A DNA stretch of 63,796 nt, counting the filler, from Collodictyon triciliatum (lineage: Eukaryota): NCBI GenBank assembly GCA_043381765.1. It is 5 parts of 5 records of this genome, joined end to end, with 100 filler letters (N's around TTAATTAATTAA, not from the genome) between each part and the next. Parts side by side here need not be neighbours in the genome. Positions count along the whole stretch, not along the records: positions 33,571 to 46,271 come from JBHJMP010000170.1; 4 more parts are not named here. The stretch is one strand, 5' to 3'. Position 1 is the stretch's first letter, and each line of letters opens with the position of its first letter. Below, piece after piece: positions 1,898 through 46,371 of this stretch. The translations under genes and the position numbers were made by a program. The notes below the pieces were generated by a model. It did no database searches. It was not told the origin of the DNA and saw nothing but the letters and a program-made list of their open reading frames with translations.

Positions 1898-2580
1898 TTA
1901 AGCCAAGTTTCCAACGGCCTGTAATCTGCCGCCCATCCCCTTCGACTCACGACGGAGCACAATGTTCTGCAAAATAGGCGACTGCGTCTTCAGATACTCC
2001 GGGTCCACGACTTTGAATGACTGGATAAAGTACTGCTCTTTACCCTCTGCGTTCATCACTAACTCGTAGTTTGTATATGTCTGCGACAGATTGTGAACAC
2101 GGGAAGATGCCTGTGTTCTTCCGGCGATGCCAGATGACTCCATCAAGTTTGCCTCTATCATAGCATCTCCCCACTAAAAAGATAGATATATAAATATGTA
2201 AACAAATACATACACACATACACACACACATACATACATACATACATACATACATACATACATACATACATACATACATACATACATACATACATACATA
2301 CATACATTTTAAGCTGCCACTTACCATATCATAGCTGAATTTGCGAGAGCCGATGACTCCGGAGATGCAGTCTCCCATCGCGATTCCTATGCGCAGTCGG
2401 ACAGTGCGCCGAATATCTGCTGATATTCTCTTCGAAGCCTCATGCGCCTCTTCAGCCAGATATGCATATTGCTAAGTACCTTTTTTATATAAAGAAAAAG
2501 AAAACATGTCGACAATCTGACAGCACAAGCTGGAATGCTGGGTGTGAAAAATTTCAACTGGACAGAGGGAGACACATAGA

Positions 2581-8960: not shown

Positions 8961-11575
8961 TTATAACTTTGCTTTTGGGTGACCGGAGGTGGACGTGCTT
9001 TCGCAGGCTTTGGATATGACGGAGAGAATGGCGTCTGACATGAGACCAGGGACTTCCTCCTGCATGATTCATCAACATAAAAGAAACATAATCAGACGGC
9101 ATAATGACGGAGAAGGAGAAGCACAATGGCCAGAGGCTTGAGACAAAAGAAAGGAACCTGCAGGAAGTGCCCGGCTTCGGTCATTGTGACAGACGCGGTT
9201 GGGAATACTTGAGTCATCCTTTTGATTGCAGGTGCAAGGATTGGGTCCCTCTTTCCCCAGACCTGAGTGATAAAAACCCGGGTGTAAATAGTGTCGCGTA
9301 CACTTGGTTTCGATTACCTCATTTTTTCTTTTCCTTTTTTCTTTAAAATAAAATACAGCAGAAAAGAAAGGATAGAACAAACAATTGCCACAGGCCCTTT
9401 GAAGCTGCGAGCCCAGGCGTCAACTCCGCCAAGTGTTTGCACAGATGGATGGTCTTCAGATAGAGCAACCATGCGGGCAAGTGCTAGAGGACCTTTTTTT
9501 TTTTTCAAACCAGAGGTTACATCTTGGCGAATTAACCGCGATACTAAATTCTTCCTTTATTCTTTTTTATATGAAAAAAAATCTCAACAAAGACCGATAT
9601 GATAGTAGCTAGTTGATGTTTTTCAAAAAAAAAAAAACAAAAGGAGGGACTGAAAAACCTGCACGAGAGCTCCACGTCGGAAAAGGATAGGAGTAAGCCC
9701 GGTTTTCTTCTGCTCCAATCGACGAAGGGTCACCTAGAAACCGCAAGGGAAGAGCTCATTTTGCTGCATTTTTGTTTTGAAAGTTGTTTTTTTTTTTGAG
9801 AGGAGGCGCATCCCATTTTGCGAGGTGCGATTAGGGGTGATATGCCATTGGTGATTGCAAAGTCTCAAACAAAGGAGCCAAAGAGCTCGTAAAGCAGGCG
9901 ATGAAGAGTGTTACCTTGGACGCGAGACATAATTGGTACAGGGAAGTTGAAGCCTCGGAACACAAGCGTGCTGAGTATTGGGGCATGCGAAAATCGGTGG
10001 AATGGTGTCTTTCGAAACGGGGCGACTGGCTTGGCTATCGCCGTGTTTCCGTAGACAGCGGCCTGGCAGTTATTGCAGAGGATAGGAAGAGAGTCAGAAC
10101 GATACAACAGACGTTTCAGCATGGGCAGATTTACACCTTAAAAAGTACTACGTTTCTGTGTCATTTATGGGTGCATCATGGATAAAATAAGTTGAATGAA
10201 TAGTAATCTAAATCACTATGATTCGCTCCGGTAGACGAGAGGCCATCCCCGAGATGATAGGCCCTGTTATATATAATTATTATGAAAACTACTATTGATA
10301 CTCTATCAAAGCAAGGGCGTGTGTTAATCAAGATATGTAACTTAATCGTTGCAGAATAAATTAGGAATTTTGTATATGCTCCTGTATCGAGGGTATCACC
10401 TCCCCAGTCCTGTCCAACAATCGTCAAGTTATGTAAATCAAGGGTCTTGACAAGCTCCACAATCGAGTTGATATGAAATTCCATATTGTGGATTTCCAAA
10501 TCATCGGGTTTATCGCTTAGACCTGTGTTTATGGATCGTGTGTTACCTTTACAATAAGAAAATTGGAGAGAGGGATAATCTTCTAATACGGCAATTAATA
10601 TGTAAGATGATAATATTAAATAAAAGTTCGCTGAAATATGCAAATAAATTAATCATGAACAAAAGAGAAGGAAGAATAATTGCTGCAAGTCCTACCAAAG
10701 CCAATCAAGTCTGGAACGATGACGCGAAGGTTACTGGCCAGCAAAGAGGGAAGGATTCTACGGTAGAGATAACACCAGGCAGGATTTCCGTGTAGCAATA
10801 TCACCGGGGTCTTACATTCGCGTGGCCCTGTTTTGCAACACTCCATTTTTACGATAGAATTACTCCCAAAAAACATAAAAACATAAAAACATAAAAACAT
10901 AAAAACATAAAAACATAAAAACATAAAAACATAAAAACATAAAAACATAAAAACATAAACCATAAAAACAGAAAAACAGAAAAACAGAAAAACAGAAAAC
11001 ATAAAAAACAGAAAACATAAAAAACAGAAAACATAAAAAACAGAAAACATAAAAAACATAAAAAACATAAAAAACATAAAAAACATAAAAACATAAAAAA
11101 CATAAAAAACATAAAACATAAAACATAAAAAACATAAAAACATAAAAACATAAAAACATAAAAACATAAAAACATAAAAAACATAAAAAACATAAACCAT
11201 AAACCATGAAACCATAAAAACATAAAAACATAAAAACATAAAAACATAAAAACATAAAAACATAAAAACATAAAAACATAAAAACATAAAAACTATAAAA
11301 AAAATAAAAAAAAAACATAAAAAAACATAAAAAAAAACATAAAAAAACATAAAAAAACATAAAAAAACATAAAAAAACATAAAAAACATAAAAAATAAAA
11401 ACTATAATGAAGTCCCACCGTCGTCGATGAAATGCATGCGTAGCGATCGAGTCGGGGCAGACTTTGCAGAGGCCAGCGACGTGATCCAGGGCAGCGCAAG
11501 AGCGAGGCAGCGGCGTTTGAACGGCAGTTGACGCGACAGCCAGGCGGGGATTTCGGGCGGAGGAAGCTCTGTCAT
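8961..11575 (-). CDS. Haloalkane dehalogenase-family alpha/beta hydrolase (HLD-III/OleB-like), 9 exons, C-terminal AKL
   Basis: Spliced in frame: MTELPPPEIPAWL...MHFIDDGPRE...LLHGNPAWCYLYR...VPDLIGFGLSDKP...VGQDWGGPI...AAVYGNT...VWGKRDPIL...EAGHFLQEEVP...GHPKAKL*. All introns are GT-AG. Confidence 0.9.
10868..11400. repeat. (CATAAAAA)n-type minisatellite in intron 1 of the dehalogenase gene
   Basis: Tandem 7-10 nt CATAAAA(A) and CAGAAAAA units are directly visible. Confidence 0.95.
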
Positions 11576-17366: not shown

Positions 17367-19069
17367 GAAATCGAAGCCTTAGTTCATTTAAGCCATCACC
17401 AGACTGATATATTCACAAGCACTCATAGCATACTCCCTGATAACCCTTTTAACTCACACAAAATAATTTATCAAGGCTTAAAACCAGCTGCGAGATACAG
17501 CCACGGATGTGATGTGGTTGGCACGAAGATTTTTATCACACACGGCTATTTTTTCGACCATGCTGCTTCCGCTGCAAGATATCTTGATGACACATGGGTC
17601 TTTGACATACTCATCAGGAGATGGGTGCAAATGAGGGTGCCAAAAGAAAGCAAGGGCTCAAGCTCCCCATCCCCGAGGTAGATTGCTACGCATCTATTCT
17701 TTATTTGCAGTATATCATTTATTTATTATTTTAAAAGTAATCTCCTTTTCTTTTATGGCTCACAATTTCAGTAAATGTGCTCATGGTTTTGCATATTTCG
17801 TTCTTTGTTTTGTTTTTAAAATACGATTTTTGGTCGGCAAGTACATATTTAATACTAAAATAATGAATACGAAATCATAGATACGGAGCAACTTTGACAT
17901 GCTTAGACCACACCGTGTGCATTCTCATCGGTGGTGATGATGGTGGCATTGGGAAAAAGGGAGGCTCTTATGTCTGGGGAAGCTATTTTCGAGAGGTCTG
18001 GTTCGGCGTGATCAGAAGCAGAGAGATAAAATGGATTGCAGGTCAGATAAACGAAAACAGCGGATTTCTTCCTATCACCGCGCACTCCTCAACTAAAATC
18101 GGGCAAGTCATATATGTATTTGGAGGATTGGTATCGAGTGACCCAACAGAAAACAACCTGTCTCCAAGAAATATCCACAGAAATGTGAGCTCATCGTCAC
18201 TCATGTACGAGTTGCGATTTCTGCGCGGAGGATTAACAAAGAATGCACAAAGAAACTCCAGCGACTGGACAGTTGTGTGTAAAGTACTTCATTCAGGCTT
18301 TAGTCCGCCTGCACGTTATGCACACGTCGCTGGCAGTTGGGACAACCGATATATATTTATATTTGGGGGGACAGGAAAGGACGTCACACAGTTGCAAGAT
18401 TTATGGAAGTTTGATATCACCAGAACCGCATGGACACCCATATTTTGTGATGAGTCAACCAACTCGGTGGCAGAACACACATTTCTTTCCTCTGCGATGA
18501 CATTTCCACCATCGAGCCTTTACCCCTCGCCGCGTCAGTTCAGTGCATCAGCAGTTCTCCCATCAGGCCATTGGCTCATCCACGGCGGGTGTGTCTGTAC
18601 ACCAGCATGTTCTTGCTTCGACGACATCTGGTCCATGGACTTTGTAACCGGCTCCTGGACTCTTTTACTGTTGAGCGATGCGCATCAAAAACCTCTGTCA
18701 AAGAGCGAAAAGGGACTTTCGTATTTGCCTGCCTTGTACCGACATTCCTTGGTATCCTTGGACGGAAGAGCAGTCCCCAGCTGGATTCAAACAAGGGCCA
18801 AAGAAGTCCATGCGAACAAGTCTTTTCTGCTCTCGTTTGGAGGAGAGTCATACATTCCTTACATGTACCACAACGATGTTTGGATGCTCTCTATCCTTGA
18901 CACTGAGTTTGACGTGCAAATCACCTATACATTTGAGCATCTGCAATCACTCTCAGTAAATGCATATTGGGGTGGGTTTATTTCACTCTTAATTGTGCTC
19001 TTTGTGGGTAGCAGACTTCTGCAGCTGAAGCGGAGTCGAGACAAGCATAATCATCATCACAGCGTCTAG
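17367..19069 (+). CDS. Kelch-repeat protein with C-terminal transmembrane helix; first exon not located
   Basis: Exon 17367-17677 (PAARYSHGCDVVGTKIFITHG...LDDTWVFD) joins exon 17881-19069. The latter has repeated PARYAH..IFIFGG..DLWKFD, PRQFS..LIHGG..DDIW and LLSFGG..NDVW units, a hydrophobic GGFISLLIVLFVG segment and an HNHHHSV* tail. Confidence 0.85.
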
Positions 19070-27586: not shown

Positions 27587-27686
27587 NNNNNNNNNNNNNN
27601 NNNNNNNNNNNNNNNNNNNNNNNNNNNNNNTTAATTAATTAANNNNNNNNNNNNNNNNNNNNNNNNNNNNNNNNNNNNNNNNNNNN
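27587..27686. other. Artificial scaffold-joining linker (N44-TTAATTAATTAA-N44)
   Basis: A 12-mer with stops in all six frames sits inside Ns; the same construct occurs four times in the window. Confidence 0.95.
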
Positions 27687-33470: not shown

Positions 33471-33570
33471 NNNNNNNNNNNNNNNNNNNNNNNNNNNNNN
33501 NNNNNNNNNNNNNNTTAATTAATTAANNNNNNNNNNNNNNNNNNNNNNNNNNNNNNNNNNNNNNNNNNNN
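33471..33570. other. Artificial scaffold-joining linker
   Basis: TTAATTAATTAA at 33515-33526 within Ns. Confidence 0.95.
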
Positions 33571-35058: not shown

Positions 35059-35250
35059 ATGGCAACCATCGCGGAGCTTGCCACGTTGGTTGGGATATCG
35101 GAGGATGCTTTGCGCTCCAACAAATCATTGTCCCTTGCTGGACGCAGTCTCAATTCCCTCCCAGCAGCACTACTGTTGCTGCACAACATTCAAGAGCTTG
35201 ATGTGTCCAATAATCAAGTTCGTTTGATTTATGCCTCACATAATGAAATT

Positions 35251-35345
<95 letters not shown>

Positions 35346-35496
35346 GATGTTGGTATATTCCAAATGACTGACATGAACCAAAATAAGATTAAAGAATTAC
35401 CGGACGATCTCGCGTCTCTCAAGTACTTAAAAAGACTGGACATTTCCAACAACGAGGTAAACTCGCCATTAGAACATTTGAACTAGAATCAAACTG

Positions 35497-35567
<71 letters not shown>

Positions 35568-38500
35568 CTCTCTTTTCTCTCTCTCTCTTTCTCTCTTTTC
35601 TCTCTCTCTTTTTCTCTTTTCTCTTTTTCTCTCTTCTCTCTTTTTCTCTCTTTTTCTCTCTTTTTCTCTCTTTTTCTCTCTTTTTCTCTCTTTTTCTCTC
35701 TTTTTCTCTCTCTTTCTCTCTCTTTCTCTCTCTCTCTCTCACTCTCACTCTCTCACTCTCTCACTCTCACTCTTTCTCTCTTCCTCTCTTCCTCTCTTTC
35801 TCTCTTTCTCTCTTTCTCTCTCTCCCTCTTTCCCTCTTTCCCTCTTTCCTTTTTTTTTTCATCCATTCTACAGACTCTTTTCAACAGGTAGTTGTATGAT
35901 TATAATAAGCACGAAAGAAAAATGATTTCACACTAATCTCAATTCGTTAAAAAAAAAACTCAGATTTCGAATCTACCCGTCCTCATTTGGTCTCTGCCTC
36001 ATATGCTCGAGCTGAAAATTGAAGGCAACCCACTTCCTGCAGAATTATTCCTCATCAAGGATGGACTGGACTTCGAAAGCCAGAGACTAAACCTTTCATT
36101 TTGCAATCTCTTCTCAGTGCCAAAACTCATCCAAAGCATGCCCCGATTAAAGTCTCTTGATCTTTCCCATAATAACATCACCTCCATACCCCCTTGGTTG
36201 TCAGAGCTCACATATCTCAAGGAATTGAATCTGCAGCACAACAAATTGTCTATTTTCCCGTCCTATAAGAATAAGAGAGATCCACCACCTATGAAGAGCT
36301 CTGCTGAAGAGAATGGTATCCCATATGGTGAATCCAAATCGTCTTTGTGTAAGTGGATAGCCAGTCATCATTTATTTGATTTTTTTTTAAAAAAAATACG
36401 CGTTTGAAAATATTTTTATAACATCATGCCCACATTTTCTCCTTATAAGTTTTTTTTTTAAAAAAAAAATAACTCCTATGAAGATTATCTTATCGTATTA
36501 ACTAGAGTAGGCAAAATTTGCTCCTAATTTAAGAGTGTTATTTATCTATCTATTTTTTCGAAATAGCTATTGCACCAGAGATAAGTCTTCTTGAGTGTGA
36601 TATTCTATTGGAAGGGAATTTCATGATACCACTACGTTTCATTCAAAAAGTTCCTATTGTGATTCAAAGTCCATTCCTCAATCCGATTGAAAAAGCGCTC
36701 AAGATTGTAGACATTATTCGAAAAACACCAAACCATGATAGACATTTAGCAATAGCCTTTGAGGAGTTTTGCCTGCGTCATTTCACAGTCATGTGTGAAA
36801 CTCAGAAATTAAACTCGATTGTAAACATGCATTTATTGAAGCTTGCAACACGAGCAAACGCAACTATGTTTCTATCCAACAAGATTGTGGAAGAAGAGAC
36901 CACCCACCTATGGTCTAATCGAGCTGATATGGACAACTATCTATCCGAAAATCTAAAGAAGCTTTCATGGTGGGAAAATGGAGTATGGAAAGGGCTTGGA
37001 TACCTTTGCAAAGCCGCATTCTTTTCATTCAGCAAATTCATTCGCTCACCTAAAGCGAAGTGCATCATATCTGCCATATTCTATCTCATTTATGTCATAT
37101 CACTGACGACTTACATTGTAGACAATAATTCATCCAAGGATGTACCCACTTACTACCAAACGAATTCACTTCATCACCGCTACTATCCAGAAAATGTTGA
37201 AAATCCGGAGCATTTCTGGGTTTACATGGAAAAGGCTTTCATTCGAGAGGCATATTCTGGAGGAAAAGAACATTTCAAAACGATAGTGCCACCCCACCAG
37301 GTGCCTCTGGAGTTGTCGTTTGATAGAATTGTTGGTCATGTCAGAATGCGCCAGTTACGCTCCATCATAGAACCATGCACCCAGGATTACGAGCAGGACC
37401 CTGAAGAGATCATGACAAAAAAGAATGACAATTCTACAGTGGTGGCATACTGCGTCCGTCCCTTTTCTATCGAAACTGAAGAGAAGCAGCCTTATGGGGA
37501 AAATGAGACGTACAATTGGTCTCCTACTGAAGAAACGGAAGCGACGGAAGTGTATGGCTATTATGGAGCTCTTTATCCAGGGAGTGGATACCTAGAGTTT
37601 CTTGACACTTCAAAGTCCAACGTGTCGAATGAATTGTCAGAGTTGAAGAACAACTATTGGGTCGATCTCCAAACACGCGCTGTCTTTGTGGAATTTATGG
37701 TATCAAACGACAACTTGGACCTAATTTCGATGGTTAGGTTGCTCTTTGAGTTCACTGTGTCAGGAGATTGCCAACCTTCCATCGAGATCAACTCTGCACC
37801 CAAGAAGATGGTTGAGGCATCTCAAGTGACCATAAAATACAACACCATGATTCTAGTTGCCTTTACATTAGCATTCTTTTTCCATGAGATCGAGGTCATC
37901 TGGTCTTTTCGGGCAGATTTTGTCAAGGAGGTCCGAACATTCCTTGATTGGACTATTACTGGCCTAGTTTTTCTTATTTTTGGATTAAGAATTCGAATGC
38001 TGTTAATTGATGCTTCCTCGACAGGTTCAGGACCGTCTGTGGAGATTAGCTTTTTGGACTTACAAAGATCGATTAACACATGGACTTTTCAGTGCGAAAT
38101 CCTCTCTGTGCTTCTGTTTCTTTCATGGATTCGGGTTCTTTTTTTTGCAATTCTGATGCCTAAGGTCGGGTCCATAGTGCTGACCATGTCAAACTTAGTC
38201 TCGACCATGCTAAACTACGTCCTTGTTATCATAATTGTTCTGGTTGCCTTTGGGACATCTATGTATGCCATATACGGCTCTGTCTTGGAATCATATTCCT
38301 CAATTGATCAAGTCTCATTTACCATCGGAAAGTTTTTGTTTGCTGATTTTGGAGACCAGCCTTTTAGAGAGGAGGAAGCTTTTCTTGGACCGTGCGTCTT
38401 CTTTGGATTCCTCCTCATCTGTGGCATCTTGCTGATGAACTTTTTGATTGCCATAATGGGTGGAAATTACAGTCGTATGCGTGATGAAGCCAAGAAGGAT

Positions 38501-41196
38501 TACAGGAGAGTTTTTGCAAAAAGTGTCATATACTATCATAAAATATCTGCCCCGATACCTCTGAACTTACTGGCACCCCTCTTTATGCTTGTTCGCTTTT
38601 GCTACAGCAAATCAAGGCCATTGGTTGACTTTGTAACACTGAGCCTGCTAACAGGGTGGAAAGACCGTTCTTTATGTTGGAAATTCCTGTGGGACGATAA
38701 GGCACTTGATACAAAGTTATGGGTGAAATGGCCGTTTCTTAACTTGAGTATATTTGAGCACTATATTGACAACATAGGCATACGATACATGACTCTGTGG
38801 ATTGACTTTATCGTTTACATAGCTTCATGGTCAGTAACCTTTATTTTTCGCGTCCCATACATCCCATTGCGGGTGTTATTTCGATGCGTAGTTGATGTTG
38901 ATCAATATCAGGAATCAGGGACCGGATATGATGACCTTGAAGATGATATTCATGGAGAGGATGACCAGTTTTACACAGTAGCCGATATGACCAATTCTAG
39001 AAAGAGCGTCAGGAGAGCCAAAAAGAGGAAAATACGTGTCTCATCCCTGTTGATGAACTTGGATACTGTTTTTCATCGCTTTCTCATCAGACTTTTCTGG
39101 GTTGCGACGGCTATTCCATGGCTTATTTTCTTTTTCTTTAGATTCGTAAGAGCATTCATAAGGGTATGTTTAGTCCAATCTATTTTTACTTTTGATTACT
39201 TTCTTCTTTTTTTTCTTTTCTAATGTTTTCTGATCGTAAGTATATGTCCTTTTATTGTACCTTTCTATTTTCTATTTATTTAATGTATTTTCTCAATATA
39301 TTCACATCCTTGATTGGAATTTGATGTGCGTGCATAGACAAAAACAGGCAAGTCTTCCCTCCTTTTACAAGGCTTATACGCAGACTCATTCTTGTTTTAT
39401 CTTTCTATATTGATTTAGCCTTTTAATGTTTTTTGTGTCAACAAATTGATTGTTTTCATAGCGTTTTATGGAACGTCTGGTCTAGACATGACAAGCAACA
39501 ATCATGTGAATGTCAGCTATGGTGGACATTTGGTCTCAAAGATGGATGAATCAGATTACACAATAAGAGCAACAAAGCCATTTCGAGTCGAAAATGGAAT
39601 TCGATACTTTGAAATCGAATTTTTGTATCCCAGTTCGAATGCTGGTATTGGATTGGTTCCTTTAAATCACACAGCTTCAATATGCGTGGGAAAAGGAGAC
39701 TACTCTATTGGATTTCTCTCTTCTGGAGAACTTTGGTATCACGGTGCATCTGTAGAGAAGATTAGCCAACCATGGACTGAATTTGGTACAATAGTCGGGT
39801 GTGGGATTGACTATGGTAGAAACCAAATATATTTCTCGTTGAATGGAAGGATATTGATGCATCTACCCATCATCCAATCCTTCCTGTCGAGAGAGATTCT
39901 GTACCCTGCATTCACACTTCGAGAATTCGGATGTGCAGCCAGAGTTAATTTTGGATTATCATCCTTCAAGCTCACTGCCCCAACCTATCAGCCATATTAC
40001 TTTAACCGATGGTCGTGTACTTCTCCATCCATAAGAGTCACCTCAGATGGTCAAATAGTATCATTTTGTGAAAAAATGAAAGATGTTGTTGATACCCCAC
40101 TGGCTTCTCTTGTGGCGGAGAATCCGTTCCCGAAAGGTCAAACCATATCATACTTTGATATCGAAATAGCTCACTGGGGGCATCAAAAGATAGTGTCCAT
40201 TGGGCTTATCTGCAAAAAGTGGGACGAGAATATTAAATTAGGTGATTCCTATCGAACGGTAGGGTTCTCAATAAATGCAGATAGGCAAGAAATGGAAATA
40301 AAATGGAAGTTCAATCGGTAATAATGTTCAACTAAAAATAATGATAATGATAATTAAAAAAAAACATACGATTGCTTGATGCAGCAGGTTTATTCGTCAT
40401 AGATACATAATAATAGAAGAAAGTGATTAATTCTACCCATCACAAGCATTCATAAGCTTGTATATTAGATAGTATTATGAAATATGCATCCCATTTCACA
40501 ATTCTGATTTACCCACATTCTCCCATCAGATGGCACAAAGGGTCTCAGTTAGACTTACTAGTGGACGTAGAGACCGTTCAGCGGATGGGATGCGGCTTCA
40601 ACCGCAAAGCCCGGATTGTTTTCTTTACGATAAATGGAAAGATACTAGATTGCTTCTTAAGAATCCCCAGAAAGTACAGCACCAAGTTCTACCCAGCGGC
40701 ATGCATGTTCTCCTACGGCCAGATTCTATGTGCTGGGTTTGAGTCGCCGGTGCCTATTGCCCACGCACTTCACCTACACGGCCGTCTGTTGCAGCCTCAT
40801 GATGACACACAGACTAGCGGGCAGCCAGACCCATTTGCATCCGAGCCTTCATATTCCTCTAACCGTGGCAGCGAAAGTCTCGGTCGCTTCTCTCAAACCC
40901 TCCCGGCAAACACAGCGCTCTTGCTTACCACAGTTGACGACCCGCTGTTCAAGCCAAACCCGCCGCATCCCTCGTTGTTCCATCAGGGCGCATCCTCGGC
41001 CGCAGGCCTTACTCAGTCACCCCACGTCACAATCAACATGAGCATGCTGGGTTTATCTCCCTCTGACCAGCGACTCCGCCTCGCAAGCCCGCGCAAGGCT
41101 GCCCCACTGCATCCTTCTCTGCCCAGAGACGGGGCTGGGGTGTTGGCCATCAACGAATTCCGAGGCCTTTATGGCACTTTCTTCAACAGCTCATAA
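35059..41196 (+). CDS. LRR + TRP/polycystin-type cation channel + two SPRY domains, about 7 exons
   Basis: LRR exons (LQ/ELDVSNNQIKELP, LKSLDLSHNNITSIP, LKELNLQHNKL pattern). The 2.6-kb exon has the polycystin TOP signature (IVGHVRMRQLR, YPGSGY, WVDLQTRAVFVEF...RLLFEF), six TM helices, a pore loop and S6 LLMNFLIAIM. SPRY motifs: YFEIEF...IGLV...IVGCGIDY...IYFSLNG...LYPA and YFDIEI...MGCGFN...VFFTING...FYPA. Confidence 0.88.
35251..35850. repeat. Intronic (TTG)n and (CT)n-rich microsatellites on either side of LRR exon 2
   Basis: (TTG)n at 35251-35346 and a CT-rich tract at about 35500-35850. Confidence 0.9.
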
Positions 41197-41388
41197 GCAG
41201 ACGCTCCAAGTGAAAGAAGTCGAAAGAGTCTTCATCAATCAGACATCGAGAAAACCATCAAAAGAATAAACTGAATTCCTCCGCCTGGGAAAAAAAAATG
41301 GGAAGAACCAAGCACGCAAATACGAGGGCAGGCAGGGGCGAGCGAAATAAACCCCTTCGTACAACAATAAAAATAACAAAAACTGATG

Positions 41389-41461
41389 CGCCCGGTGTGG
41401 GGGTCGAACCCACGACATTCAGGTTAAAAGCCTGACGCTCTACCGACTGAGCTAACCGGGC
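41389..41461 (-). tRNA. tRNA-Lys (anticodon UUU)
   Basis: GCCCGGTTAGCTCAGTCGGTAGAGCGTCAGGCTTTTAACCTGAATGTCGTGGGTTCGACCCCCACACCGGGCG forms a 73-nt cloverleaf with A and B boxes; a T5 Pol III terminator follows a few nt downstream. Confidence 0.97.
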
Positions 41462-46271: not shown

Positions 46272-46371
46272 NNNNNNNNNNNNNNNNNNNNNNNNNNNNN
46301 NNNNNNNNNNNNNNNTTAATTAATTAANNNNNNNNNNNNNNNNNNNNNNNNNNNNNNNNNNNNNNNNNNNN
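46272..46371. other. Artificial scaffold-joining linker
   Basis: TTAATTAATTAA at 46316-46327 within Ns. Confidence 0.95.

Follow-up and report, generated by a model that had tools for sequence, protein, structure and literature searches.

By common teaching, transient receptor potential (TRP) channels fall into two groups. Here we describe a gene that probably encodes a TRP-superfamily cation channel subunit with a group 2 core in a group 1-type cytosolic frame. It lies at 35059-41196 on the plus strand of a 63,796-nucleotide window (the whole stretch of DNA analysed, filler included) from the protist Collodictyon triciliatum, which is joined from five parts of five records of assembly GCA_043381765.1; the part that carries the gene comes from JBHJMP010000170.1. 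Six joined exons give a 4776-nt open reading frame (ORF) of 1591 amino acids (aa) with a single terminal stop. In order, the protein contains leucine-rich repeats (LRRs), a helical domain before the first membrane segment (pre-S1 domain), S1, a polycystin/TOP domain, S2-S6, a helix after S6, a PxPxNL motif, two hydrophobic helices and two SPRY domains. Pfam scans recover LRR_8 (1.7e-11) and LRR_4 (4.3e-11) in exon 3, weaker LRR matches in exons 1 and 2, Polycystin_dom (6.6e-26), PKD_channel (8.4e-17) and Ion_trans in exon 4, and SPRY (9.8e-13) in exon 5, followed in exon 6 by a partial SPRY match (4e-5) that lies under the curated cut-off. Two SPRY stretches are also present in P0004, the ortholog from Diphylleia rotans. 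Kyte-Doolittle hydropathy reveals six strong segments, S1-S6, and three further ones after S6, at aa 864-882, 947-965 and 1043-1065. Chance alone would not give Pfam E-values of this size, and independent mRNA-derived ORFs of Diphylleia repeat the order of the domains, so the architecture is not a chance assembly.

An earlier interpretation of this DNA, the sequence-only reading, had proposed a phase-compatible spliced gene at this place that encodes LRRs, a six-helix channel, further hydrophobic segments and two SPRY domains. Its coordinates and phases are correct, since the GT..AG joins yield one ORF, and the domain content is borne out by Pfam, with LRR, Polycystin_dom, PKD_channel and SPRY all recovered by HMMER, and by hydropathy, the second SPRY being partial. 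The motifs it quoted before S1 and after S6 are indeed located there in the exon-4 translation. It was also right about the polycystin TOP signature in the S1-S2 loop, seen in the Polycystin_dom match and in the superposition on PKD2 (Z 32), and about a filter reading FADF in place of the LGD of PKD2, as HMMER aligns FAD with LGD.

All five introns of the channel gene are bounded by GT..AG, their phases match and no in-frame stop is created across the junctions. Exon 1 (35059-35217) starts with the ATG at 35059, encodes the first LRRs (weak LRR_4/LRR_8 matches) and ends at the donor GTTCGT; its beginning, MATIAELA, pairs with MATLTELA at the start of P0004. Intron 1 (35218-35387, 170 nt, phase 0) contains a (TTG)n microsatellite that occupies most of it (35246-35346). 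Exon 2 (35388-35456) holds one LRR (IKELPDDLASLKYLKRLDISNNE; LRR_4 1.2e-4) and is followed by intron 2 (35457-35963, 507 nt), which consists for the most part of a long CT-rich simple repeat (35500-35860); the splice across the repeat is still confirmed by an RNA contig. Exon 3 (35964-36348) encodes the LRRs with the strongest Pfam matches and a linker, with the donor GTAAGT in phase 1. Exon 4 (36567-39163) holds the entire channel in one open frame, with the pre-S1 domain, S1-S6 and the post-S6 helices. For intron 4 we place the ends at 39164-39418 (255 nt); an alternative, 39168-39461, also keeps the frame and results in a protein of 1578 aa. This second version agrees better with P0004, whose aligned blocks are 16 aa apart, but has the weak donor GTTTAG. 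Exon 5 (39419-40317) encodes SPRY 1 (39605-39958) and the N-terminal half of SPRY 2, which is interrupted by intron 5 (40318-40529, 212 nt), and exon 6 (40530-41196) encodes the second half of SPRY 2 (about 40564-40707), a low-complexity tail and the stop TAA.

The gene is present in public RNA libraries, as judged from contigs of RNA runs. A contig from a freshwater metatranscriptome (X6) maps on 35962-36040 and its 72-nt loose end stops with the last bases of exon 2, so that the 3' end of exon 2 is read as running on into exon 3. A contig of run X1, which is an RNA run by guess only, joins 40316/7 to 40529/30 with GT..AG ends and skips exactly the nucleotides of intron 5. Hence, two of the five introns (exon 2|3 and exon 5|6) are contig-confirmed, with junctions exactly at the predicted sites. 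The contig mapping started at 35930, within intron 2. Metatranscriptome contigs from X2 cover 37123-37660 of exon 4 at 99% identity or more, and further contigs at 99% or more fall on exons 4, 5 and 6, those on exon 6 coming from X1, X2, X6 and X8. Together the contigs cover only parts of the gene, and each of the matching public sequencing runs has a small share (0.10 or less); no mapped contig covers 36041-37122, 37661-39547 or 39771-40121. The ortholog P0004, a Trinity ORF of Diphylleia rotans with 1624 aa and 59% identity, spans LRR, channel and SPRY parts in a single ORF. In tblastn it is colinear with 35059-41112 over all six exons: its aa 74-200 map on exon 3, aa 204-1053 on exon 4 (58% identical), aa 1070-1355 on exon 5 (57% identical) and aa 1355-1599 on exon 6.

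The membrane core, S1-S6 together with the TOP domain, is clearly of the polycystin-2 type (TRPP, group 2). Among PDB sequences, phmmer finds PKD2 (7.8e-31), PKD2L1 (2e-25) and PKD1L3 (6e-13) for the exon-4 protein; group 1 TRPs reach 8e-5 or worse (TRPA1 8e-5, TRPV6 1e-4), over S5-S6 only. S1 (37049-37129; model helix 161-187, hydropathy peak 2.14) is where structural alignments with PKD2 begin. The S1-S2 loop carries the polycystin/TOP domain (37196-37795; Polycystin_dom 6.2e-26 at residues 210-409 in the Pfam scan of the family), which forms a beta-sheet in the model, and this large extracellular domain sets the protein apart from a group 1 core. S2-S6 with the pore helix (37838-38461; model helices 424-631) match PKD_channel at 3.5e-17 in that scan, and the six-helix core is of this type. 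Within the nine family members (the window protein and its Diphylleia relatives), C270 and C295 of the TOP domain and N624 are invariant. The selectivity-filter triplet is FAD (38339-38347) at the position of LGD in PKD2. An LGD filter is typical of PKD2 and PKD2L1 without formally defining them; LFADFGD is common to the window protein and P0004, and the seven other Diphylleia members keep GD. AlphaFold2 modelled exon 4 with a pLDDT of 82.9 and a pTM of 0.74 from a 50-row alignment. The model superimposes on PKD2 with a TM score of 0.85 in Foldseek (normalised to PKD2) and with Z 32.4, rmsd 2.2 and 22% identity over 439 aligned residues in VIA, and the structural alignments with PKD2 are confined to model residues 158-166 to 630-647.

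What precedes this core is of a different kind. The first 120 residues of exon 4 form a helical domain with pLDDT 93-97, part of a linker-helical-like pre-S1 domain that includes LLKLATRANATMFLSNKIVEEETTHLW and the pre-S1 helix (36569-37045). We searched a profile of this domain from the nine family members against 177,635 PDB sequences and obtained 66 matches at E<=10, the best 60 of which are all TRPC1/3/4/5/6 or TRPM2/4/5/8 (best E-values: TRPC1 3.4e-3, TRPM5 4.9e-3, TRPC6 5.1e-3, TRPM2 7.6e-3). The alignments sit on the linker helices right before S1 and include the motif that the sequence-only reading had quoted; the pattern ..L.LA..A.A..F[LV]S....Q/V.....W is common to the pre-S1 domain, TRPC1, TRPC6 and TRPM5. 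W115 is invariant in all nine members. A VIA fold search of 48,161 representative chains, independent of Foldseek, returned Z>=8 only for TRPM3 (10.9), TRPM8 (9.4) and TRPM7 (8.5), with 137-145 residues aligned, and next TRPY1, TRPM2, TRPM4, crTRP1 and TRPC. Folded alone (190 aa), the domain reaches pLDDT 86, and ranks 1-17 of its Foldseek search are all TRPC or TRPM, at E 0.78 or worse. With the whole model, TRPC6, TRPC4/5, TRPM3, TRPM7 and TRPM2 extend in VIA from residues 1-20 to 667-687 (Z 16-17, 361-396 residues aligned), where these ranges give the first and last aligned residues only. Thus, homology of the pre-S1 domain to the linker-helical domain of TRPC and TRPM, a group 1 trait, is well supported, even if the statistics are modest.

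Directly after S6, the model places a helix (38465-38542; model helix 633-658; KKDYRRVFAKSVIYYHK) in the position of the TRP helix, and then the proline motif APIPLNLL (38549-38572), in which P662 and P664 are invariant in nine of nine members. This motif aligns with APSPLNLV of NOMPC and PPPLIIL of TRPM7. With a query of S6 plus 90 residues, Iav (2.9e-5) and NOMPC (4.6e-4) rank above PKD2 (0.11), as do Nanchung, TRPY1, a TRPM2-like protein, crTRP1, TRPC4/5 and TRPM8; the group 1 alignments pass through the helix and the proline motif, whereas that of PKD2 stops within the helix. Structural alignments with TRPC and TRPM end at model residues 667-687. Homology of the post-S6 helix to the TRP helix is therefore likely, on the weaker evidence of S6-anchored alignments and the model as compared with the pre-S1 domain. 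A preprint describes group 2 TRPs as having neither a TRP helix nor a structured cytosolic pre-S1 domain (bioRxiv 10.64898/2026.06.15.732245), and a large extracellular or luminal domain is given as a group 2 feature there and in a review (PMC12799467). Here the model contains both the confident pre-S1 domain and helix 633-658; the alignments with TRPC and TRPM span both, those with PKD2 do not.

The terminal modules have other affinities. Only LRR families are found N-terminally in the Pfam scans, with no ankyrin or melastatin homology regions there, and the repeats are tandem and of the LxxLxLxxN type. By family profile they belong to the SHOC2/LRRC8 class (SHOC2 about 1e-71, LRRC8A 3.5e-57). 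Hydropathy shows no hydrophobic segment at the N-terminus. Two hydrophobic helices follow the proline motif, helix 7 at 38792-38848 (hydropathy 1.62, inside model helix 739-775) and helix 8 at 39080-39148 (hydropathy 2.0, inside model helices 820-864). The solved sequences nearest to SPRY 1 are the SPRY of RyR1 (2.6e-7), a nematode SPRYSEC protein (3.4e-7) and RanBP9 of the RanBP9/10 type (3.1e-6).

Relatives of the protein are few. A word-based homolog search returned three fish PKD1L2 proteins only. When 1.84 billion representatives were searched exhaustively with HMMER, 2587 matched at E<=1e-3 and 10 at E<=1e-30, but only eight cover both the pre-S1 and the post-S6 regions. Each of these (P0004-P0011) is a Trinity transcript from Diphylleia rotans (EukProt), so that the full framework was found in these representatives only; sequences of this architecture are thus already in databases as unannotated transcripts. 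Four of the six that were scanned (P0004-P0007) combine LRR, Polycystin_dom, PKD_channel and SPRY, and P0008 and P0009 have LRR and channel. The motif residues W115, P662 and P664 persist even in paralogues whose identity to the window protein is only 21-33%. One paralogue, taken to be P0008/P0155 (2106-2237 aa) because of the long extension at its C-terminus, shows weak C-terminal matches to RasGEF_N (0.086) and RasGEF (0.067); it may be a fusion of a channel with a Ras exchange factor.

A TRP-box-like helix after S6 is also found in other polycystin-domain proteins, namely P0020 (Pyxidicula), P0089 (Balamuthia mandrillaris KAL6042513.1, named 'TRP-like ion channel Pkd2'), P0099 (Cavostelium) and the metagenome sequences P0025 and P0027. 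Behind this helix, P0020, P0025 and P0027 have a P.P.NL or PP.N motif, which is missing from the tails of P0089 and P0099. N-terminal ankyrin repeats, a hallmark of group 1, are present in P0025, P0089 and P0099, and no SPRY was detected in the five amoebozoan and metagenome relatives scanned. Two of them match YVC1_C (P0020 7.9e-7, P0025 2e-3). Searched against the 166 collected proteins at E<=10, the family pre-S1 profile recovered only family members and isoforms, not the amoebozoan or metagenome relatives. In a quick maximum-likelihood tree of 64 rows, rooted on PKD1L2 and built without outgroups from group 1 or TRPML, the gene nests among PKD2-like rows. The family forms a single clade (SH-aLRT 99), which is joined first by P0025 and P0027 (98) and next by the amoebozoan rows (90). 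All of these are contained in a clade of 22 protist rows (99) that is separate from the animal PKD2 clade. A second quick tree was built with the post-S6 columns removed (50 rows, 14 having been dropped for a missing S6 pattern). Here too the family forms a clade (99); a branch with a value of 84, without a support mark, has the 14 TRP-box rows on one side, and a 20-row clade reaches 96.

Comparison with known channels makes the combination plain. With PKD2 and PKD2L1 the protein shares the S1-S6 core with its pore helix, a TOP domain between S1 and S2 and an acidic residue at the filter, but these channels have no counterpart for the structured pre-S1 domain, the LRRs, the post-S6 helix with its proline motif, the two further hydrophobic helices or the SPRY domains, and their filter is LGD instead of FAD. 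With TRPC and TRPM it shares the linker-helical pre-S1 domain and the succession of post-S6 helix, proline motif and hydrophobic segment. It differs from them in a core far closer to PKD2, in the tyrosine that replaces the TRP-box tryptophan, in LRRs where TRPC and TRPM have ankyrin repeats or MHR domains, and in the presence of TOP, a domain that a review reports as not found in TRPCs (PMC12799467). The amoebozoan ankyrin polycystin channels (Balamuthia, Cavostelium, Pyxidicula) are the nearest clade in the trees. They share Polycystin_dom and PKD_channel, N-terminal cytosolic repeats and the TRP-box-like helix, with ankyrin where the family described here has LRRs. Single modules have parallels in unrelated channels. 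SPRY 1 is nearest to residues 1075-1171 of RyR1, and both proteins are cation channels with SPRY modules; the ryanodine receptor, however, has an unrelated channel fold, and the SPRY domains here are C-terminal to the pore. LRRC8/VRAC and SHOC2 have LRRs of the same sequence class, and LRRC8 is a precedent for a channel with cytosolic LRRs, although it belongs to a different channel family and its LRRs are C-terminal. According to two studies, most non-animal TRPs fall outside the animal families (bioRxiv 10.64898/2026.06.15.732245), and most sampled unicellular TRPs relate to group 2 (eLife; PMC9242649).

How such a subunit might work can be sketched from these parts. Four subunits would assemble into a cation channel whose pore is of the PKD2 type and whose TOP domains form an extracellular ring. 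This ring and the FAD filter, in which the acidic D is kept, would provide a cation pathway that is probably Ca2+-permeable, as in PKD2. The LRR solenoid would be placed in the cytosol, where TRPC, TRPV, TRPA and TRPN have ankyrin repeats; a cytosolic position of LRRs and linker domain is predicted because there is no hydrophobic leader and TOP lies between S1 and S2. In group 1 channels, according to a review, the TRP helix is in contact with the proximal helices of the N-terminus, with the S4-S5 loop and with S1 and S4 at their cytoplasmic ends (PMC12799467). On the most economical reading, the post-S6 helix would, in the manner of that helix, couple the pre-S1 domain and the LRRs to the S4-S5 linker and the S6 gate, and partners bound to LRR or SPRY could thus set gating or anchoring. 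The protein may have a sensory role; a sensor function of the LRRs and a scaffold function of the SPRY domains, as proposed in the sequence-only reading, are putative. The weakly hydrophobic segment after the proline motif resembles the re-entrant helix of TRPM, since TRPM alignments reach model residues 683-687, and is probably re-entrant. The two further hydrophobic helices would make a membrane hairpin that returns the chain to the cytosol, so that the SPRY pair would stay cytosolic.

Several points weigh against a group 2 core in a group 1-type frame, or against parts of it. By its core, and as far as quick trees rooted on PKD1L2 can tell, the gene sits with PKD2-like channels and does not take a position halfway between groups 1 and 2. 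E-values for the pre-S1 domain are no more than marginal (3e-3 to 1), and the Z-scores of 8.5-10.9 are below the caution line of about 13, where lower values can reflect a common helical arrangement. Queried as a single sequence against the PDB, the pre-S1 domain gave two irrelevant matches and no TRP at E<=10, and Pfam scans of the nine members returned no TRP_2 or other group 1 family at E<=5. AlphaFold2 was trained on TRP structures and its model may lean toward them, and the wide VIA ranges mark end points only. The post-S6 segment alone (69 aa, single sequence) matched three irrelevant entries and no TRP; a 12-row post-S6 profile without S6 reached at best NOMPC at E 0.23, which is not significant, although five of its six matches at E<=10 fall on the TRP domains of NOMPC or TRPM7. 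Throughout the family a tyrosine takes the place of the canonical TRP-box tryptophan, and with its occurrence in amoebozoan polycystin-domain channels the TRP-box-like helix is not unique to the family. The cytosolic side of the SPRY domains is a prediction that depends on the number of membrane crossings after S6. One could see an ordinary PKD2-like channel with lineage-specific accessory domains, in which the likeness of the flanks to TRPC and TRPM is superficial and due to helical composition, short motifs and model bias. The clearly PKD2-like core is in line with this, and so are the weak flanks (best pre-S1 E 3.4e-3, post-S6 profile 0.23, Foldseek E 0.78 or worse, Z under 13) and the single-sequence flank queries that found no TRP. 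However, the best 60 of the 66 profile matches, drawn from 177,635 sequences, are TRPC or TRPM at the equivalent place, the independent search of 48,161 chains is topped by TRPM3, TRPM8 and TRPM7, and the motif residues are invariant in paralogues of 21-33% identity. We regard this explanation as unlikely.

Protist genomes often reshuffle domains, and the two similarities map to separate segments of the protein, as they would in a recent mosaic in which a group 1 TRP gave the pre-S1 domain and the TRP helix and a PKD2-like gene gave S1-S6 with TOP. Such a chimera requires two precise junctions, before S1 and after S6, with all parts in one exon, and amoebozoan and metagenome relatives also have the TRP-box-like helix, some with P.P.NL or PP.N. 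That these relatives group with the family despite removal of the post-S6 columns (84; 96) points to an older shared state, and we consider domain shuffling just as improbable as superficial likeness. Far less probable still is a false merger of two or three adjacent genes, encoding LRR, channel and SPRY. It could draw on the exon 3|4 and exon 4|5 joins, which no mapped contig bridges, and on the exon 4/5 junction, which is ambiguous between the two solutions for intron 4 given above. For this reason we infer a single transcript in Collodictyon triciliatum from the ortholog. Separate transcripts, which would have spoken against the sequence-only reading, are not indicated: P0004 is one complete ORF of an mRNA assembly, colinear over all six exons, two junctions are bridged, further Diphylleia paralogues (P0005-P0007) repeat the domain order, and at every junction the phases agree and no in-frame stop arises.

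A group 2 core in a group 1-type cytosolic frame thus remains the probable description of this channel subunit. The proposal of an unclassified subfamily that bridges both groups holds in so far as the flanks are TRPC/TRPM-like and the core is PKD2-like; it does not hold in the sense of a position midway between the groups, and the post-S6 similarity taken alone is not significant. We class the gene with TRPP-like channels, in a protist subfamily marked by a probable group 1-type frame and by LRRs and SPRY domains; it is a real, undescribed variant. The literature yielded no already described subfamily of this build, with nothing on Diphylleia TRP channels, on LRR or SPRY polycystins or on ankyrin polycystin-domain channels in a search that left many journals and supplements outside its scope. 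More tentatively, and with a little less than even confidence in the reading as a whole, the gene may belong to a surviving protist lineage of polycystin-type channels, comprising the source organism, Amoebozoa, Entosiphon and metagenome sequences, that has kept the group 1 frame of repeat solenoid, linker helices and TRP helix.

A tRNA-Lys gene (anticodon TTT) lies at 41388-41461 on the minus strand, about 190 nt downstream of the channel stop and opposite to it. Measured in 2-kb bins, the GC content of the window is about 26-47%; microsatellites and N gaps are numerous. The N gaps at 27587-27686, 33471-33570, 46272-46371 and 58705-58804 consist of paired runs of 44 N around 12 bases and adjoin minisatellites, and they look like an artefact of assembly or scaffolding. 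ORFs elsewhere in the window encode a catalytic fragment of a guanylate/adenylate cyclase (2040-2471, minus strand; 3.6e-6), the start of an alpha/beta hydrolase (10649-10900, minus strand), Kelch repeats (17867-19069, plus strand; 3e-22), for which a word-based search with a limit of E<=1e-5 returned no homolog, and the C-terminal half of a PIP5K domain (51899-52405, plus strand; 4.6e-22).

A channel that combines both feature sets is a test case for the order in which they were gained or lost. If the frame was indeed retained, a channel built like those of group 1 would have gained the TOP domain by insertion, and animal TRPP, perhaps also TRPML, would later have lost the linker domain and the TRP helix. 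The split between group 1 and group 2 would then reflect loss and not separate origins, and it would be justified to name the clade as a separate subfamily. For channel function, the protein presents a PKD2-type pore whose gate may be driven by a TRP helix, and with it LRR and SPRY join the list of cytosolic modules that a TRP pore can be connected to. Little-sampled protists hold TRP architectures that animal-centred classifications have missed.

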